From positions 16,317 through 80,316 of the forward strand of contig NDHY01000002.1 in NCBI GenBank assembly GCA_003574845.1: a stretch of DNA of 64,000 nt. Reading direction: 5' to 3'. The notes under the pieces are model-generated. The model did no database searches. It saw nothing but the letters and a program-made list of their open reading frames with translations, and had not been told where the DNA came from. Shown here piece by piece: positions 47,488-53,759 of this stretch; within the stretch, counting starts at the first letter, position 1, and each line of letters starts with the position of its first letter. Source of the stretch: a candidate division NPL-UPA2 bacterium Unc8. Its GTDB lineage: Bacteria > NPL-UPA2. A program made the translations under genes and the position numbers.

Positions 47488-49137
47488 TTATCTCATTGCT
47501 GCTCCATGACTTGCATCAAGACAACCTTGTTCATACCAGCTCAAACACCCCTTAATGTCTCTTTCCCGTGGTTGCCATTTTTTTATCCGTGTTTCAAGTT
47601 CATCCCTGCTAATATCCAGGTTAAGTTTTCTATTGGGAATATCTATTGAAATATAATCTCCCTCGCAAACAACTGCTATTGGGCCTCCAACCGCTGCCTC
47701 CGGCACTATATGACCAATACAAGGCCCTCGCGTACCTCCAGAGAATCGCCCATCGGTAATCAGCGCTACTGAATCTGACAAACCCCGCCCGCAGATAGCG
47801 GCAGTCGGAGCAAGCATCTCACGCATTCCAGGGCCACCCCTTGGCCCTTCATATCTGATGACTACCACATCTCCTTCTTTTATTTTATCTGAGGTAATTG
47901 CTTCATAAGCATCCTCTTCACATTCAAAGACGCGCGCCGGCCCACGTACTTTGAGCATTACATCTGCTACTGCAATTTGTTTTACCACTGCTCCATCAGG
48001 AGCCAGTGACCCTTTTAGTATGGCAATGCCGCCTTCCTTGTGCACAGGATTGGCGAGAGGACGAATTACATCTTCATTTGATACAGAAACATCAAAAATA
48101 TTGTCCACTACCCTCTTTCCGTTGACAGTGAGGCAATTTAAGTTAAGCAATGTTTGTAATTGCTTCATTACTGCAGGCACCCCGCCAGCATTTTCCATAT
48201 CAATCATAAAGTATTTGCCACCTGGCCTCATATCACAAAGATGAGGAGTATCCCGACTTAACTCATCAAAGGTTTCAAGGGGAATATCAATCCCTGCCTC
48301 GCGGGCAATCGCCAGCACCTCGAGCGTATCATTGGTAGAGCCTCCTATTGAAAGAGACACTCTTATCCAGTTCAGGAATGCCTTTTTAGTCATTATTTTC
48401 CTTGCATTAATGTCATTCTTAATAAGATTGACGACTTGCCTGCCACTCATCTCTGCTAAATGCACCTTTCTCTCGCTAGCAGCATGAGAAGTAGCGCATC
48501 CCGGGAGAGATAATCCCAGTGCCTCTGTTCCACAAGCTAAGGTATTGGCGCTGAACATCCCGGCACAGCTTCCTGCCCCGGGACAAGCACACTCCTCCAG
48601 TTCGCGGAGCTCATCCTCCCTCATCTCGCCGCCAGATGCCTTACCTACTGCCTCAAAGACACTGATTATATCTACCCTATCTCCCTGAAAATTTCCAGGA
48701 AACATAGGGCCACCCGTAACGACAATAGTTGGAATGTCCAATCGACCAGCCGCCATCAGGTGACCGGGAACGACCTCATCACATGCAGCGATAAGAACCA
48801 TTCCATCAAGAGCATGCGCCTCAATCATTATTTCAATAGAGTTAGCAATTACATCTCGGGATGGCAAAGAATACTTCATTCCCTTATGTCCTATTGCCAG
48901 CCCATCGCAGACGGCAATAGTACTGAATTCAAATGGCATTCCACCGGATTTCCTTATTCCCTTTTTCACCGCATCTGAGAGTTCTCTCAGGTGAATATGA
49001 CCAGGCACAATCTCCGTCCAGGAATTAACCACTGCAATGAACGGCTTGGTCATATCCTTTCTTGTTACTCCACACGCCTTTAAGAGAGAGCGGTGAGGTG
49101 CTCGTTCCAACCCATCCTTAATTAAATTGCTTCTCAT
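47488..49137 (-). CDS. ilvD: Dihydroxy-acid dehydratase
   Basis: 549 aa with IlvD/EDD family motifs ([15 protein letters not shown], Cys ligands for the Fe-S cluster). Confidence 0.95.
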
Positions 49138-49344
49138 TTTTACTCCTATTTTCTATTTAGCATCTAACATTTCCCTTTGGTAAATAGTAAATATTGCCTT
49201 GTGGCATCCTTTCAGCAATCATAGCACCGTATTTGGGTGACTGACAAGGGAAAGCTATCAAAAGGTTGACTTATTTTTCCAATTTTGTTAGAAGCATACA
49301 ATAAGTGAACGAGTAAACTCCGCCAGAAGAGGCATGAGTTTCTA

Positions 49345-49409
49345 GCTGTAGTCACGCTAATCCGCTGACAATTATATCTGACAGAGAAAGGAAGATAGGT
49401 ATTGCAAAG
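49345..49409 (+). repeat. 65-bp direct repeat, left copy (GCTGTAGTCACGCTAATCCGCTGACAATTATATCTGACAGAGAAAGGAAGATAGGTATTGCAAAG)
   Basis: 64/65 identical to 50438..50502. Confidence 0.9.
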
Positions 49410-49416
49410 GGGTCAT

Positions 49417-50336
49417 GGGGTCAGGTCTTGCAATATAACAAAAGATATGCTATATTGGCAACATGACCAGACCATTACGGATAGAATTTAACGGAGCAGT
49501 TTATCATATCACTTCCAGAGGAAATGCTAAGCAGACGATCTTCCTTGATGAGAAAGACTTTGCTGATTTCCTTGGAGTCTTATGTCAGGTGGTAAAAAGA
49601 TATCACCTCATATTACATGCCTTCTGTCTGATGAATAACCATTATCATCTGCTTATTGAAACCCCTGAAGGTAACTTATCAAGAGGGATGAGACAATTAA
49701 ATGGTCTATATACCCAACGATTCAACCAAAGACATCAGAGAGTTGGGCATCTTTTACAGGGCAGGTACAAAGCGATTCTGGTAGATAAAGATAATTATTT
49801 ACTGGAACTTTGTCGCTATGTGGTGTTAAATCCGGTAAGGGCAAAAATAGTAAAAGACCCCAAAGACTGGAAATGGAGTGCTTATCGGGCAACTATAGGC
49901 TATAAAGGAATTCCCTGTTTAACGACAGATTGGATACTTTCTCAATTTGGCAACGAGAAAAAAGCAGCCTCCAGACAATATCAAGAATTTGTCTACTCCG
50001 GGATAAAAGCAGAATCACCCTTAAAAGTGGTAAAGGGGCAATTGTTTCTTGGCCAGGATAATTTTATGGATAAGATGAAATCCTTGATTGCAGGCAAAGA
50101 AAAATTAAAAGAGATACCGAGAGAGCAGCGCTATATAACCAGGCCACCCTTAAAGGAAATTTTTGATTATAAGGACAAGGAGTCAAAAGATCAAGCAATG
50201 TATGAGGCTTGCTTACAGTATGGCTATACCTTAAAAGATATAGCAGAATATATTGATGTGCATTATACTACAGTGAGCAGAGTGATTAAAAAAATTGAGG
50301 GGGAAAATGAAAAGTGATATTGCAAGACCTGACCCC
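49417..50336 (+). mobile_element. Candidate minimal insertion element: Y1/HUH transposase-like gene bounded by 20-bp perfect inverted repeats (49417-49436 GGGGTCAGGTCTTGCAATAT; 50317-50336 ATATTGCAAGACCTGACCCC)
   Basis: Inverted repeats read directly. A sigma70-like promoter (TTGCAA-17-TATATT, 49428-49456) lies in the left end and predicts a leaderless transcript starting at the ATG at 49463. Confidence 0.45.
49463..50317 (+). CDS. IS200-like (Y1 HUH) transposase-family protein with C-terminal DnaA-C-like HTH (COG1943-type, 'transposase and inactivated derivatives')
   Basis: N-terminus MTRPLRIEFNGAVYHITSRGN...HAFCLMNNHYHLLIE has the HUH-type HxH and YH motifs. The C-terminus YTLKDIAEYIDVHYTTVSRVIKKIE is an HTH. 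Confidence 0.7.
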   Translation: MTRPLRIEFNGAVYHITSRGNAKQTIFLDEKDFADFLGVLCQVVKRYHLILHAFCLMNNHYHLLIETPEGNLSRGMRQLNGLYTQRFNQRHQRVGHLLQGRYKAILVDKDNYLLELCRYVVLNPVRAKIVKDPKDWKWSAYRATIGYKGIPCLTTDWILSQFGNEKKAASRQYQEFVYSGIKAESPLKVVKGQLFLGQDNFMDKMKSLIAGKEKLKEIPREQRYITRPPLKEIFDYKDKESKDQAMYEACLQYGYTLKDIAEYIDVHYTTVSRVIKKIEGENEK

Positions 50337-50437
50337 TTCACAACACAAGGTAAAAAAAGGAAATAAAAAGATAAGTCTTATGATTTGGAGTAATAAAACC
50401 AAAAGATTATTTAGACTAAAAATGCTAACTCAGAGTG

Positions 50438-50502
50438 GCTGTAGTTACGCTAATCCGCTGACAATTATATCTGACAGAGAAAGGAAGATAGGTATTGCAA
50501 AG
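50438..50502 (+). repeat. 65-bp direct repeat, right copy; immediately upstream of the methyltransferase RBS/ATG
   Basis: 64/65 identical to 49345..49409. Confidence 0.9.
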
Positions 50503-50514
50503 AAGGAAAGGCTT

Positions 50515-51036
50515 ATGGCTACATTGGCATTATTAGAGGGAAAAACCTTAGATGTGGGCTGCGGGAAGAACGAGTTAATTAATATCTATAGACAACAAGG
50601 GGGAAATGGGATAGGGGTTGATATCTTTCCATTTGAAGGCGTTGACCAGGTCCTTGACACTGCAAACCTGCCATTTAGAGACGAGGAGTTTGATACTGTT
50701 ACTATGATTGCCTGCCTTAATCATATTCCTATCAGGAAAAGAGATAAAGTTTTATCTGAGGCTAACAGGGTTTTAAGTAAGAGAGGAAGATTGATATTGA
50801 CAATGGTCGGTGGTTTCTCCGGCTGGCTCTGCCACAAGCTCTGTCTGCAAGATTTTGACCAGGATGAACGAGGAATGGACCTCCAGGAAGAACATTATGG
50901 GTTGCCGAGGAAATATGTTATTGAAATAGCAAGTAAAAATGGATTTACAATGGTCCACCACAGACGATTCTGTTATGGTTTAAATAATTTATTTATCTTT
51001 AAAAAAAATCTTAATAAGAAGTCGTCCAGAACGTGA
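50515..51036 (+). CDS. Class I SAM-dependent methyltransferase (Methyltransf_11-like)
   Basis: Start at MATLALLEG after an AAGGAAAGG RBS. LDVGCGKNE is motif I (GxGxG). Confidence 0.7.
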   Translation: MATLALLEGKTLDVGCGKNELINIYRQQGGNGIGVDIFPFEGVDQVLDTANLPFRDEEFDTVTMIACLNHIPIRKRDKVLSEANRVLSKRGRLILTMVGGFSGWLCHKLCLQDFDQDERGMDLQEEHYGLPRKYVIEIASKNGFTMVHHRRFCYGLNNLFIFKKNLNKKSSRT

Positions 51037-52469: not shown

Positions 52470-53759
52470 TTATTTTTTAAATGGATATTTAAGGAATATA
52501 ATAAGCCCGATAAAAGTTATGATTCCTGCTATTGGTCCAACTATTATGATTCCAAGTGGCTCTTCTATGGTTTTTCCAAAATGATGCAGAAGTTGAGTAA
52601 GAGCAAACATAGAGATACCAATCGCTATCTTGGTTATTAATCCATTGGCGCCAAAATAGATTGCTTCTCTTCTAAATCCTGTTAAAGTTTCATCGTAGTC
52701 AATCACATCAGCAATTATCGCATTTTGTAAAACCAACAGCCCGGAAACCGGTATTCCGAGCATAGCAACAATAAACAACCCATAATAAAAAGGTGAAAAC
52801 GGCAGTTTCCCAATAGTTGCCAGTAAAAACAAGAAAAAGATAAAAAGACCAAAAACAGTTATATAGACTACTCGCTTACCAAACCTCTTTGCAGAATAAT
52901 TAATCAAAGGAAAGGACAGAGCAGCTACTGCCATCATTATTCCTAATGCATATCCTGCCCACCCTGCAGTCGCCCCCATTAATACCGTTACCATAAAAGG
53001 GACAACCCCAGTCACCATGCCAAACCCTAAGAAGAAAATGCCAGTTGCAGAGACATAATAAAGGAACGGCTTGTTCTTGAAACACTGTGTCAGTGCTTTG
53101 AACGGGGACAAGGTTACTTCCTTTGCGGAAGACCAGGAAGTTTCCCTGATAAATATTACCGGAAAACAAAAACTAACAAGAGTAATGCCCCCCATAACAA
53201 TAGCCATCACTCTGAAGCCAAACTGGTCTATCAGATAACCCGAGCCCAAAAAAGCAATAAAAAGCCCTAAAATACCAAAACTGGCAAGATAGGTTGATAA
53301 GTTTATTCGCTGGCGGTGAGTAGAAGTAATTTCAGGGAGAAGCGCTAAATACGGGGCAACTGTAACAGTAAAGAAAAACCAGAAAAAACCCAATACTACT
53401 GCCAAATATAAAGCATTACCCATTACTTTATCGGCAACAGGTGGATAAAAAAGAAGGGTCCATGCTACAACTAAAAAGGGAGCCCCCAGTGCAATAAATG
53501 GAATTCTTCTCCCAAAACGGCTTCTATGTTTATCACTAAAATATCCGATCAACGGATCGGCAATGGCATCTACGATCCTGCCAAAAAGCATGGCATATCC
53601 TACAAATATGATAGGAGCATAAATTATTCCTTTTCCTTCTGGTGGCGCATAGAAAAAAACTATCCACATTGGAATAAGCTGACTAACGAGCAATGAACCT
53701 AGATTGCCACTACTGTAAGCAAGGCTCTTAAACAAACCCAGATTTTTCTCTTTATCCAT
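52470..53759 (-). CDS. MFS transporter, GPH (glycoside-pentoside-hexuronide:cation symporter) / MFS_2 family
   Basis: 429 aa, 12 predicted transmembrane segments. N-terminus GRIVDAIADPLIGYFSDKHRSRFGRRIPF is the GPH-family signature loop. Confidence 0.75.
   Translation of the reverse strand: MDKEKNLGLFKSLAYSSGNLGSLLVSQLIPMWIVFFYAPPEGKGIIYAPIIFVGYAMLFGRIVDAIADPLIGYFSDKHRSRFGRRIPFIALGAPFLVVAWTLLFYPPVADKVMGNALYLAVVLGFFWFFFTVTVAPYLALLPEITSTHRQRINLSTYLASFGILGLFIAFLGSGYLIDQFGFRVMAIVMGGITLVSFCFPVIFIRETSWSSAKEVTLSPFKALTQCFKNKPFLYYVSATGIFFLGFGMVTGVVPFMVTVLMGATAGWAGYALGIMMAVAALSFPLINYSAKRFGKRVVYITVFGLFIFFLFLLATIGKLPFSPFYYGLFIVAMLGIPVSGLLVLQNAIIADVIDYDETLTGFRREAIYFGANGLITKIAIGISMFALTQLLHHFGKTIEEPLGIIIVGPIAGIITFIGLIIFLKYPFKK

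Follow-up and report, generated by a model that had tools for sequence, protein, structure and literature searches.

REPtrons, in which RAYT/TnpA_REP genes are flanked by REPs and in which REPINs are the mobilised units, are reportedly known from the work of Nunvar in 2010, of Bertels and Rainey in 2011 and of Ton-Hoang and Messing in 2012, the last with the structure PDB 4ER8. The element described here resembles them in its enzyme class and in the arrangement of a gene framed by a repeat in inverted orientation, further copies of which are dispersed with no gene; its inverted gene-less pairs, which form hairpins, resemble REPINs, and the gene is usually single-copy in both. In contrast to REPtrons, no terminal inverted repeat (TIR) of the present element is a palindrome by itself or has a GTAG or CGTC tag, and the protein has an extra helix-turn-helix (HTH) domain. 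The unit of gene and repeats also occurs in numerous unrelated contexts and in many phyla; for RAYTs, in contrast, mainly vertical inheritance is reported.

The elements of the IS200/IS605 group (IS608, ISDra2) are likewise small and compact, produce no target-site duplication (TSD) and use the Y1 HUH chemistry that would be expected here. They differ in lacking TIRs and in having distinct left and right subterminal hairpins. Their TnpA, of ~130-150 aa, consists of the core only and has no HTH, compared with 284 aa in the present protein. They often carry tnpB as well, and they insert 3' of a defined tetra- or pentanucleotide.

The closest described architecture was named TIRtron, and its enzyme TIRYT, in 2013 (Di Nocera, De Gregorio & Rocco 2013, BMC Genomics 14:522), and TIRYTs were assigned to TnpA_REP subclass 2.1 by Quentin et al. 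2018, BMC Genomics 19:475. GGGGWSAS is the TIR motif of the main TIR group (PMC3733652, PMC6006769) and 3' TIRs overlapping the gene are on record for TIRtrons under the label 3'ov (PMC3733652). A count of 20/26 is given for TIRYTs in subclass 2.1 with HTH_23/HTH_28/Bac_DnaA_C tails, and the subclass occurs in ~15% of strains (PMC6006769). TIRtrons and the present element have in common a RAYT-like Y1/HUH protein that is longer than the TnpA of IS200 and ends in an HTH, and a gene that lies between long TIRs in place of REP hairpins, with the GGGGWSAS start and a 3' TIR overlapping the gene end. They also share TIRs that form moderately abundant families of dispersed repeats, often as dimers or clusters, and a patchy taxonomic distribution that suggests horizontal transfer. 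No class-defining feature differs from the TIRtrons. The present element is a further member of the already described TIRtrons, a poorly studied kind, and the novelty as a minimal insertion sequence (IS) that the original prediction had considered must be given up, because the architecture, with the same repeat start, was named in 2013.

Layout of the locus

The window, that is, the whole stretch of 64 kb that was analysed, covers about 6% of the ~1-Mbp genome of its NPL-UPA2 host. Very probably, positions 49417-50336 of this window are a TIRtron of ~920 bp, in which one TIRYT gene of TnpA_REP-like class 2, subclass 2.1 type is bracketed by cognate 20-bp TIRs, for which we infer TIR recognition and HUH chemistry, and the 65-bp repeats around it represent a separate, secondary duplication. 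The features are as follows.

49345..49409, + strand: left 65-bp direct repeat copy (repeat finder, 64/65 identical to the right copy)
49410..49416, + strand: GGGTCAT 'tip stutter', GGGTCA plus T, a partial duplicate of the TIR tip just outside the real tip (sequence)
49417..49436, + strand: TIR-L, GGGGTCAGGTCTTGCAATAT, which holds the -35 hexamer (repeat finder and 20-mer search)
49428..49456, + strand: promoter-like site, TTGCAA, 17-nt spacer, TGnTATATT with extended -10 (promoter scan 9/12, TG present)
49432..49461, - strand: outward promoter-like site toward ilvD, TTGCCA, 18 nt, TATATT (promoter scan 10/12, TG)
49463..50317, + strand: TIRYT gene, 284 aa (ORF, Pfam Y1_Tnp and NF047646)
50317..50336, - strand: TIR-R, overlapping the last base of the TGA stop at 50315-50317 (repeat finder and 20-mer search)
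50337..50437, no strand: A/T-rich spacer of 101 bp from TIR-R to the right direct repeat (strain comparison)
50438..50502, + strand: right 65-bp direct repeat copy, directly upstream of the methyltransferase RBS (repeat finder)
50515..51036, + strand: SAM-dependent methyltransferase, a neighbouring host gene outside the element (Pfam Methyltransf_11)

The repeat finder returned inverted arms of 28 nt at 49412-49439 and 50314-50341, matching at 25/28 positions, and the perfect 20-mer lies inside them once on each strand. Both the perfect inverted repeats flanking the gene and the 65-bp direct repeats had been predicted at these coordinates and were recovered. By chance, the 20-mer with up to three mismatches is expected 0.01 times per window, and a 33-nt core taken from the direct repeat 0.00 times. 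The rest of the 64-kb window has no further copies of the 20-bp inverted repeat or of the 65-bp direct repeat. The right direct repeat, ending at 50502, is followed by AAGGAAAGG and then by ATG 50515, so that it ends at the methyltransferase RBS as described originally.

The TIRYT protein

The 284-aa product was taken for a Y1/HUH protein from the outset, and the profile searches agree: it matches Pfam Y1_Tnp at 2.2e-12 and the NCBIfam model NF047646, REP-associated tyrosine transposase, with 86.6 bits against a cutoff of 80. The class-2 signatures are HuH and Y---NP according to PMC6006769, and the core residues of the present protein are H60-Y61-H62 and Y119-x3-N123-P124 (Y119-V-V-L-N123-P124). 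H60-Y61-H62, Y119, N123 and P124 are invariant across 33 relatives. The HUH and Y-x3-NPV motifs align with those of E. coli TnpA_REP (4ER8) in a search against the sequences of solved structures, with a marginal E of 0.25 for which the alignment was used for the motif register only. The database annotation wrongly names the gene 'addiction module toxin RelE'.

A C-terminal HTH domain, of the HTH_23/HTH_28/Bac_DnaA_C type that belongs to subclass 2.1.2, lies at about residues 240-283, with weak Pfam matches at residues 250-278. In the window protein, HTH_23 has an E of 3.5e-4 and is below Pfam's cutoff; in the close relatives, HTH_23 is found in 33/33 (best 8e-8), HTH_28 in 25/33 and Bac_DnaA_C, weakly, in 21/33. 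Of the 'DnaA-C-like HTH' in the original prediction, the C-terminal HTH is thus retained, and the DnaA-C label is dropped because Bac_DnaA_C is absent from the protein's own matches up to E=1. A structure prediction made from the 33 close relatives was poor (mean pLDDT 54, pTM 0.35), with the C-terminal helices (pLDDT 74-88) as the sole confident part of the model. The protein has no close paralogues in the collection, because its 90% cluster spans only two contigs there.

Terminal inverted repeats

The TIR starts with GGGGTCAG, in agreement with the GGGGWSAS motif of the literature. Neither arm is self-complementary, and the right end folds no better than shuffled sequences (z +0.6 and +1.3). 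Within the TIR there is no internal palindrome and no GTAG; the only GTAG is a chance occurrence where the 65-bp repeat, which is unrelated, begins. At the left end, an imperfect subterminal palindrome at 49427-49460, overlapped by the outward promoter-like site, gives a hairpin with z -2.6 as DNA and -3.4 as minus-strand RNA.

Between elements whose proteins are 49-57% identical, the TIR is identical at 16-20 of 20 positions, a conservation that is partly biased in the loci of the genome scan, which were found via an exact 19-mer. In the loci that were found via the protein (L043, L045 and L053), the first 15-16 nt of the TIR are still common. Judged from these comparisons, the TIR is more conserved than the TIRYT protein. 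Since 16-20 of the 20 positions are kept at only ~50% protein identity, the perfect arms reflect constraint and not a recent insertion, and the earlier reading of perfect repeats as the sign of a recent event does not hold.

Promoter and expression

In the sequence and in the promoter scan, TTGCAA at 49428-49433 is followed by a 17-nt spacer, TATATT at 49451-49456 and, after 6 nt, ATG 49463. The 6 nt between the -10 and the ATG are GGCAAC, with no Shine-Dalgarno. Among 35 distinct left ends, 30 keep the 17-nt spacer, and in 29 the start codon follows the -10 after exactly 6 nt. The TIRYT mRNA is therefore predicted to be leaderless and to start at the ATG; the promoter placement proposed originally can be read directly from the sequence, and its geometry is conserved across the family. 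The promoter/terminator scan of the locus returned no terminator-like site.

The TIRYT gene is transcribed in situ in the present host. Its RPKM was 1510 and 1213 in two springs, and its expression rank was 142, compared with ranks of 955 and 980 for two other COG1943 genes of the same expression table.

Spread of the unit and its repeats

We found 32 distinct complete copies of the unit, 900-935 bp long, whose flanks are unrelated and diverge exactly at the TIR tips, so that the unit occupies at least 32 unrelated contexts. A TIR-bounded gene in dozens of unrelated contexts and in many phyla must have been inserted as a discrete unit and transferred horizontally; the inverted repeats are the ends of this Y1/HUH-gene unit, and the view that the element is atypical for IS200/IS605 is upheld. 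The phyla with the unit or the TIR include Bacillota, Nitrospirota and Patescibacteria, together with an Asgard archaeon MAG. The genome scan gave at least 120 stretches with at least 218 TIR copies, and the copies among the matches listed comprise 11 full elements, 10 internally deleted ones, 22 mini pairs and 132 solo TIRs. The gene-less mini pairs are inverted TIR pairs of 48-93 bp that fold into perfect hairpins (-19.1 kcal/mol and z -8 in one of them). The TIR is also present as solo copies and arrays and is multi-copy in several genomes; two or more contigs with a TIR were found in at least 14 assemblies, and no genome has two full TIRtron copies among the matches listed. Desulfobulbus alkaliphilus DSM 24258 and Peptococcaceae SCADC1_2_3 are examples of genomes with many TIR copies. 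A single TIR match was found in 2.9 million viral contigs, and the sequences gave no sign of phage carriage of the TIR.

No TSD was found in 84 two-ended elements, and flank matches of 2-6 nt were as frequent as expected from shuffled sequences. Of the ends, 83% have A or T at position -1, directly outside the TIR tip, and TATTAW adjoins one end in the closest relatives. Duplications of the flank plus the tip, like the tip stutter in the present locus, occur at 69 of 312 distinct TIR ends (22%) vs 3.2% of control windows. A search for empty sites with the joined flanks of 94 elements, in all fetched loci, gave self-matches only, and no circle junction was recovered. The TIR tip is also the target of an IS110-family element.

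The element in its host lineage

Five near-identical host assemblies with identical ilvD genes all carry the TIRtron at the same site together with both 65-bp copies, and the strain indels in the interval between ilvD and the methyltransferase lie directly outside both TIR tips. The element looks single-copy and fixed in the ~1-Mbp host genome. Because the five assemblies are near-identical, this fixation covers very little evolutionary time, and it is equally compatible with a domesticated gene. A sister lineage, found via a radical-SAM cluster and ~90% identical, has no TIRYT gene; a deletion of approximately 49305-50968 left a methyltransferase remnant of 33 nt, and the lineage is uninformative on the empty site because the whole interval was deleted. 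No empty site was found among the five assemblies and the diverged relatives.

The 65-bp direct repeats and the methyltransferase

In the flanks of 31 other TIRtron contexts, the longest flank-to-flank repeat is 8-11 nt. The 65-bp repeats are therefore not borne by the element, long flank repeats as a property of the family are rejected, and the doubt raised at the beginning that 65 bp could be a TSD was justified. On the strength of these comparisons, we regard the 65-bp repeats as lying outside the TIRtron and as a duplication that would be specific to the host lineage. It may be, as the original prediction had it in its second option, that the insertion went into a 65-bp element that was already there and became duplicated; the five assemblies, all with both copies, and the only diverged relative found, with its interval deleted, speak neither for nor against this. 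The last 7 nt of the left copy are deleted in L083 and L003, and the one mismatch of the left and right copies, C/T, is shared by all assemblies. No other copy of the 65-mer was found in the window or in any fetched locus, Rfam gave no match on 49000-50700 at E up to 1, and the RNA structure of the 65-mer gave no signal on either strand or together with the methyltransferase leader (z about 0).

The 101-bp spacer is hypervariable between near-identical strains, with a 52-bp deletion in L083 and L003 and a rewritten stretch in L085. A similarity of the spacer to DNA downstream of another TIRtron (L026; 75% over 79 nt) was discarded as A/T-rich low complexity after direct alignment and tblastx. 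The real start of the methyltransferase is most likely ATG 50515 and not the database GTG 50314; Methyltransf_11 matches from residue 12 of the 173-aa form (2.3e-13), and with the strain indels of 14 and 52 nt, which lie in the putative N-terminal extension, the called lengths become 225 and 204 aa. The database call would then be over-extended through the repeat.

Proposed mechanism

By analogy with TnpA_REP and IS200/IS605, on which the cleavage site, the strand, the dependence on single-stranded DNA and the role of the HTH are all modelled here, the TIRYT would recognise the TIRs, for which it probably uses its HTH domain. Cleavage probably takes place at the GGGG tip or close to it, and the enzyme probably nicks and rejoins single-stranded DNA through the covalent 5'-phosphotyrosine chemistry of its relatives. 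Once the DNA is single-stranded, the TIRs at both ends of an element, full or mini, could pair into a hairpin or panhandle that brings the tips together. The TIRYT may mobilise its own gene and, in trans, the gene-less TIR pairs, as has been proposed for RAYT/REPIN systems. Because the -35 lies within the TIR, binding of the TIRYT probably autoregulates the leaderless transcript. The 65-bp repeats would stem from a separate duplication, specific to the lineage, in which the leader region of the methyltransferase downstream was copied; this duplication may have arisen at or after the insertion by a secondary event, for which unequal recombination and repair at nicked ends are candidates, and would not be a product of the transposition chemistry.

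Alternative explanations

Two further readings seem possible to us, and we favour neither. In this host, the TIRYT may have been domesticated, as has been argued for RAYTs, in which case it would be an immobile, vertically inherited host nuclease or regulator and the repeats its binding or regulatory sites only. The common site and repeats of the five assemblies, the lack of close paralogues in the collection and of extra TIR copies within the 64-kb window, and the high expression rank of the gene in a streamlined genome, compared with the two other COG1943 genes, would all fit, and RAYT-type genes are typically single-copy (PMC5581495). However, the identical unit in at least 32 unrelated contexts and in distant phyla requires recent mobility of the whole unit, the concentration of strain indels at both tips suggests that the ends are still processed, and the constancy of the site comes from near-identical assemblies, whereas the ~90%-identical sister lineage is without the gene. 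A tentative reading in the opposite direction is that the GGGGTCAGGTCTTG-type TIRtron lineage could be a currently active, autonomous, cross-phylum IS of an unrecognised family, with a Y1/HUH enzyme that would use true TIRs, read by the added HTH, in place of subterminal hairpins. The tip duplications and strain indels would then be footprints of a distinct cleavage/repair chemistry, and the same processing of the ends could, in an extreme case, have produced the 65-bp duplication.

The remaining explanations have less in their favour. It is unlikely that the 65-bp repeats are a genuine long TSD, formed when the TIRtron together with 101 bp of transduced flank (49410-50437) went into nicks staggered by 65 bp. 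Both copies abut such a segment exactly, and the smaller tandem duplications of flank plus tip could likewise come from staggered nicking and fill-in; against this, there is no such duplication in the 31 other contexts or the 84 two-ended elements, the right copy is 101 bp away from TIR-R and does not adjoin it, and the spacer has no demonstrable foreign origin. We consider it highly improbable that the element is an ordinary IS200/IS605 IS with overlooked subterminal hairpins. The Y1_Tnp domain, the absence of a TSD, the A/T-biased flank with TATTAW by one end in the closest relatives and the modest palindrome at the left end agree with that assignment, but the right end has no hairpin and the protein is of class 2 (Y---NP, 284 aa, HTH tail) and not a class 1 TnpA of ~150 aa. 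Moreover, tnpB is absent, and the true inverted-repeat ends are lacking in IS200/IS605, according to PMC6006769. Hardly credible at all is an action of the inverted repeats in RNA, by pairing of the 5' and 3' ends of the mRNA for stability or termination and not as DNA recombination sites. The arms could form a perfect 20-bp duplex, but the conserved promoter embedded in the TIR predicts a transcript from the ATG and so places TIR-L outside the mRNA, many genomes have the same repeats as solo copies or as pairs without a gene, and the scan returned no terminator-like site.

Significance

Several observations go beyond the published TIRtron descriptions in the portions accessible: the spread of the whole 920-bp unit over many phyla in unrelated contexts, the measured absence of a TSD, the conserved leaderless geometry embedded in the TIR, the recurrent duplications of flank plus tip and the targeting of the tip by an IS110-family element. 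The recurrent duplications of the flank plus the repeat tip are the most intriguing by-product of the analysis. A large part of the Y1/HUH superfamily consists of TIRYTs, and the literature searched held no biochemical characterisation of any of them. The present lineage offers a convenient model: its unit is self-contained at 920 bp, its ends hardly vary, mini-substrates of 48-93 bp exist naturally and the gene is expressed in situ. It could show how a single-strand HUH nuclease makes use of an HTH together with inverted repeats, and whether units of this kind give rise to REP/REPIN-like repeat families.

Results

The repeats, the 284-aa Y1/HUH ORF, the promoter spacing and the adjacent methyltransferase gene of the original prediction were all present in the sequence.

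Features of the window locus
49345-49409 and 50438-50502: direct repeats of 65 nt (65-mers), 64/65 identical (repeat finder)
49412-49439 and 50314-50341: inverted arms, 25/28 identical (repeat finder)
49417-49436 (+) and 50317-50336 (-): perfect 20-mer GGGGTCAGGTCTTGCAATAT within the arms, the terminal inverted repeats TIR-L and TIR-R
49463-50317: transposase ORF, 284 aa, Pfam Y1_Tnp 2.2e-12 and weak C-terminal HTH matches
50515: ATG of the SAM methyltransferase, separated by AAGGAAAGG from the end of the right direct repeat at 50502

Upstream of the transposase, the sequence and a promoter scan gave the order TTGCAA, 17 nt, TATATT, 6 nt, ATG. Both repeats were far above chance (expected matches 0.01 for the 20-mer and 0.00 for a 33-nt core of the direct repeat), and no further copy of either was found within the 64-kb window. 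The predicted DnaA-C-like HTH held only as a weak C-terminal HTH, as the window protein had no match to Bac_DnaA_C. The database name of this protein, 'addiction module toxin RelE', is an annotation problem. The methyltransferase is started in the database at GTG 50314 (240 aa), so that the call includes TIR-R, the spacer and the right 65-mer; because strain indels in this stretch give called lengths of 225 and 204 aa, the start is probably ATG 50515 (173 aa).

Over 8000 relatives of the window protein were found, and the best 120 are 67-87% identical to it. We fetched 80 related metagenome loci (L numbers) for comparison, and GGGGTCAGGTCTTGMAATAT bracketed nearly all of the full-length relatives among them, with the left TIR about 26 nt upstream of the start codon and the right TIR overlapping the stop codon. 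The DNA beyond the TIR tips, the outer G-run ends, was unrelated from locus to locus. Because identical tips bound unrelated contexts, the inverted repeats mark both ends of one discrete unit that was inserted repeatedly; 32 different complete copies, 900-935 bp long, were counted. Distant relatives (43-57% identity) had an equal layout with different but mutually matching termini.

Termini of distant relatives
L043-45: GGGGTCAGGTCTTGACATGACAG
L060: GGGGTCAGGCCGTGAATTGAGAATTT
L067/69/80: GGTGGTGTCAGG...CCATTCTTCA

RAYT-like genes bounded by long terminal inverted repeats with no relation to GTAG repeats form units named TIRtrons, their proteins are called TIRYTs, and their traits are a common TIR motif, GGGGWSAS, gene ends overlapped by TIRs, and TIR families that are moderately abundant, dispersed and arranged as dimers or clusters (Di Nocera et al. 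2013, PMC3733652). The window TIR begins GGGGTCAG, in agreement with the published motif. According to Quentin et al. (2018, PMC6006769), 20 of 26 TIRYTs belong to TnpA_REP subclass 2.1, which has C-terminal HTH_23/HTH_28/Bac_DnaA_C-like domains and no REPs nearby, and subclass 2.1.2 has the patchy distribution expected of horizontally moving elements. In 33 relatives, H60-Y61-H62 and Y119-x3-N123-P124 of the window protein were invariant; HTH_23 matched all 33 and Bac_DnaA_C 21, weakly. The window protein passed the NCBIfam model of REP-associated tyrosine transposases (86.6 bits; cutoff 80), and its HUH and Y-NPV motifs aligned with those of E. coli TnpA_REP (4ER8) in a marginal match (E 0.25). 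The window element is a TIRtron, with every testable defining feature of the class. The suggestion of an atypical minimal IS was right in spirit, as the unit is TIR-bounded and occurs in many contexts; however, this kind of element had already been described (PMC3733652). Later work on TIRYTs was searched for in the literature and not found.

There was no target-site duplication in 84 two-ended elements, in which flank-to-flank matches of 2-6 nt equalled the shuffled expectation. Of 312 distinct ends, 83% had A or T as the base adjoining the G-run, and TATTAW on the bottom strand adjoined the 3' end of the gene in the closest relatives. The TIRs had no self-complementarity; by folding, a modest subterminal palindrome was present at the left end only (49427-49460) and absent at the right.

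At 69 of the 312 ends (22%, compared to 3.2% of control windows) an extra partial tip was located no more than 45 nt beyond the real one; 44 of these ends had the 6 nt of flank before it duplicated too. Such tandem duplications consisted of flank (6-14 nt) followed by the initial 6-16 nt of the TIR, and some were in three copies (for example, loci L008, L012, L020, L027, L030, L113 and L127). The window has an extra partial tip of this kind:

49410-49425: GGGTCA-T-GGGGTCAGG, extra part 49410-49416

The available text of the two TIRYT papers (PMC3733652, PMC6006769) does not mention these duplications. Among near-identical host assemblies, the ilvD-methyltransferase interval had indels directly outside both tips, a 7-nt deletion at the left and a 52-nt deletion or rewritten stretch at the right.

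The -35 hexamer (TTGAAA, TTGCAA or TTGACA) lay within the TIR in 35 distinct left ends; the spacer to the -10 was 17 nt in 30 of them, and the -10 was exactly 6 nt from the start codon (GRCAAC, without Shine-Dalgarno) in 29. The diverged elements L043/45 keep this geometry (TTGACA, 17 nt, TAATCT, 6 nt, ATG). A second promoter-like site at 49432-49461 (-) (TTGCCA, 18 nt, TATATT; 10/12 with TG) points out of TIR-L toward ilvD, and it arises with the inward promoter from one partly palindromic segment.

Unc8 is a metagenome-assembled genome of about 1 Mbp and 985 CDS from hyperalkaline serpentinising springs (PMC6305446). The window TIRYT gene (B9J77_01380, COG1943 RayT) is transcribed in situ: in Supplementary Data 1 of that study it ranked 142, with RPKM values of 1510 and 1213 for two springs, while the downstream methyltransferase ranked 24 and ilvD 451. 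The gene table holds at least five COG1943 entries, including two shorter genes on Contig_1 outside the window, B9J77_00015 (224 aa, rank 980) and B9J77_00050 (149 aa, rank 955), which are near-silent compared to the window gene.

Scanning one genome per species for exact GGGTCAGGTCTTGMAATAT matched at least 120 stretches with at least 218 TIR copies.

Forms of the TIR among the stretches listed
Full elements: at least 11
Internally deleted elements retaining both gene ends: at least 10 (e.g. L130, 181 bp; L121, 384 bp)
Inverted TIR pairs of up to 100 bp: at least 22
Solo TIR copies: at least 132

The hosts among these stretches included Nitrospirota, Desulfobacterota, Bacillota, Atribacterota, Planctomycetota, Patescibacteria, Chlamydiota, Beta- and Gammaproteobacteria, Bacteroidota and one Asgard archaeon MAG. 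More than one TIR-bearing contig was present in at least 14 assemblies, among them that of the isolate Desulfobulbus alkaliphilus DSM 24258. A single match came from 2.9 million viral contigs. A 48-bp TIR pair was predicted to form a perfect hairpin (-19.1 kcal/mol, z -8). A full TIRtron of 923 bp (L143), with a protein 52% identical to that of the window, was on a contig binned to the Promethearchaeota archaeon MAG JL_US_07_7 (Asgard); because its coverage was very low (0.43), mis-binning is possible. An IS110-family element (L007:3912-5117 (-), 401 aa; DEDD_Tnp_IS110 4.6e-21, Transposase_20 4.1e-17) was joined by one and the same end sequence to either TIR at GGGG|TCAGGTCTTG in five loci (L007, L025, L051, L062, L063), and it appears to target the TIRtron tip specifically, as IS110/IS1111 elements do REPs.

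Discussion

A recent insertion had been deduced from the perfect arms. In 11 elements at 49-57% protein identity, the TIR was still identical to that of the window at 16-20 of 20 positions, with the first 14 nt almost invariant; selection by exact match favours high TIR conservation in the scanned loci, and L043/45/53, found by protein, agree nonetheless. Judged on sequence, the TIR is conserved more strongly than the protein. Because it outlasts protein divergence, the perfect arms reflect constraint and are no sign of recency.

The 65-bp direct repeats are not a property of the TIRtron, because the longest repeat common to both 400-nt flanks was only 8-11 nt in 31 other contexts. No other copy was found in the window or any fetched locus, and the 65-mer had no RNA structure signal by folding and no Rfam match. 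Both copies, with an identical C/T difference between them, were in every host assembly covering both positions (contig L086 ends before the right copy). We searched for an empty site on contigs that carry more distant proteins of the radical-SAM cluster. In a sister lineage (L208:4862-5237, L209, L210), ilvD and the radical-SAM gene, about 90% identical, are adjacent with a 376-bp spacer, and TIRYT, TIR and 65-mer are absent. The methyltransferase is missing but for a 33-nt 3'-end remnant, 94% identical to window 50969-51001, and because this remnant is retained the gene is ancestral. By its sequence, the sister state is a deletion over about 49305-50968 and no clean empty site. This lineage also lacks the MFS transporter gene (window 52470-53759 compared) and has a palindromic insert of about 65 nt, GTTAGAGATAGG...CTTATCTCTAAC, upstream of the radical-SAM gene. 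The 65-mers, a local by-product, might have originated by unequal recombination between two nearby insertions, by homology-driven integration of a circle with element, spacer and 65-mer, or by fill-in at staggered nicks.

The promoter and start geometry predicts a leaderless TIRYT transcript, and because the -35 sits inside the TIR, autoregulation by the enzyme is suggested. Same-orientation arrays of TIR-like copies occurred in L135:1-8000 (a Deltaproteobacteria MAG, 7 in 8 kb), L113 (9 in 2.6 kb) and L146. The L135 array is interspersed among successive toxin-antitoxin cassettes (HicA, HigB with HTH antitoxin, DUF4160, DUF4258), from which solo TIRs could act as promoters or cassette boundaries. 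The flank-plus-tip duplications and the tip indels may result from end-processing by the enzyme, through nicking and then slippage or fill-in. Both these duplications and the spread of a single TIR lineage across phyla merit follow-up.
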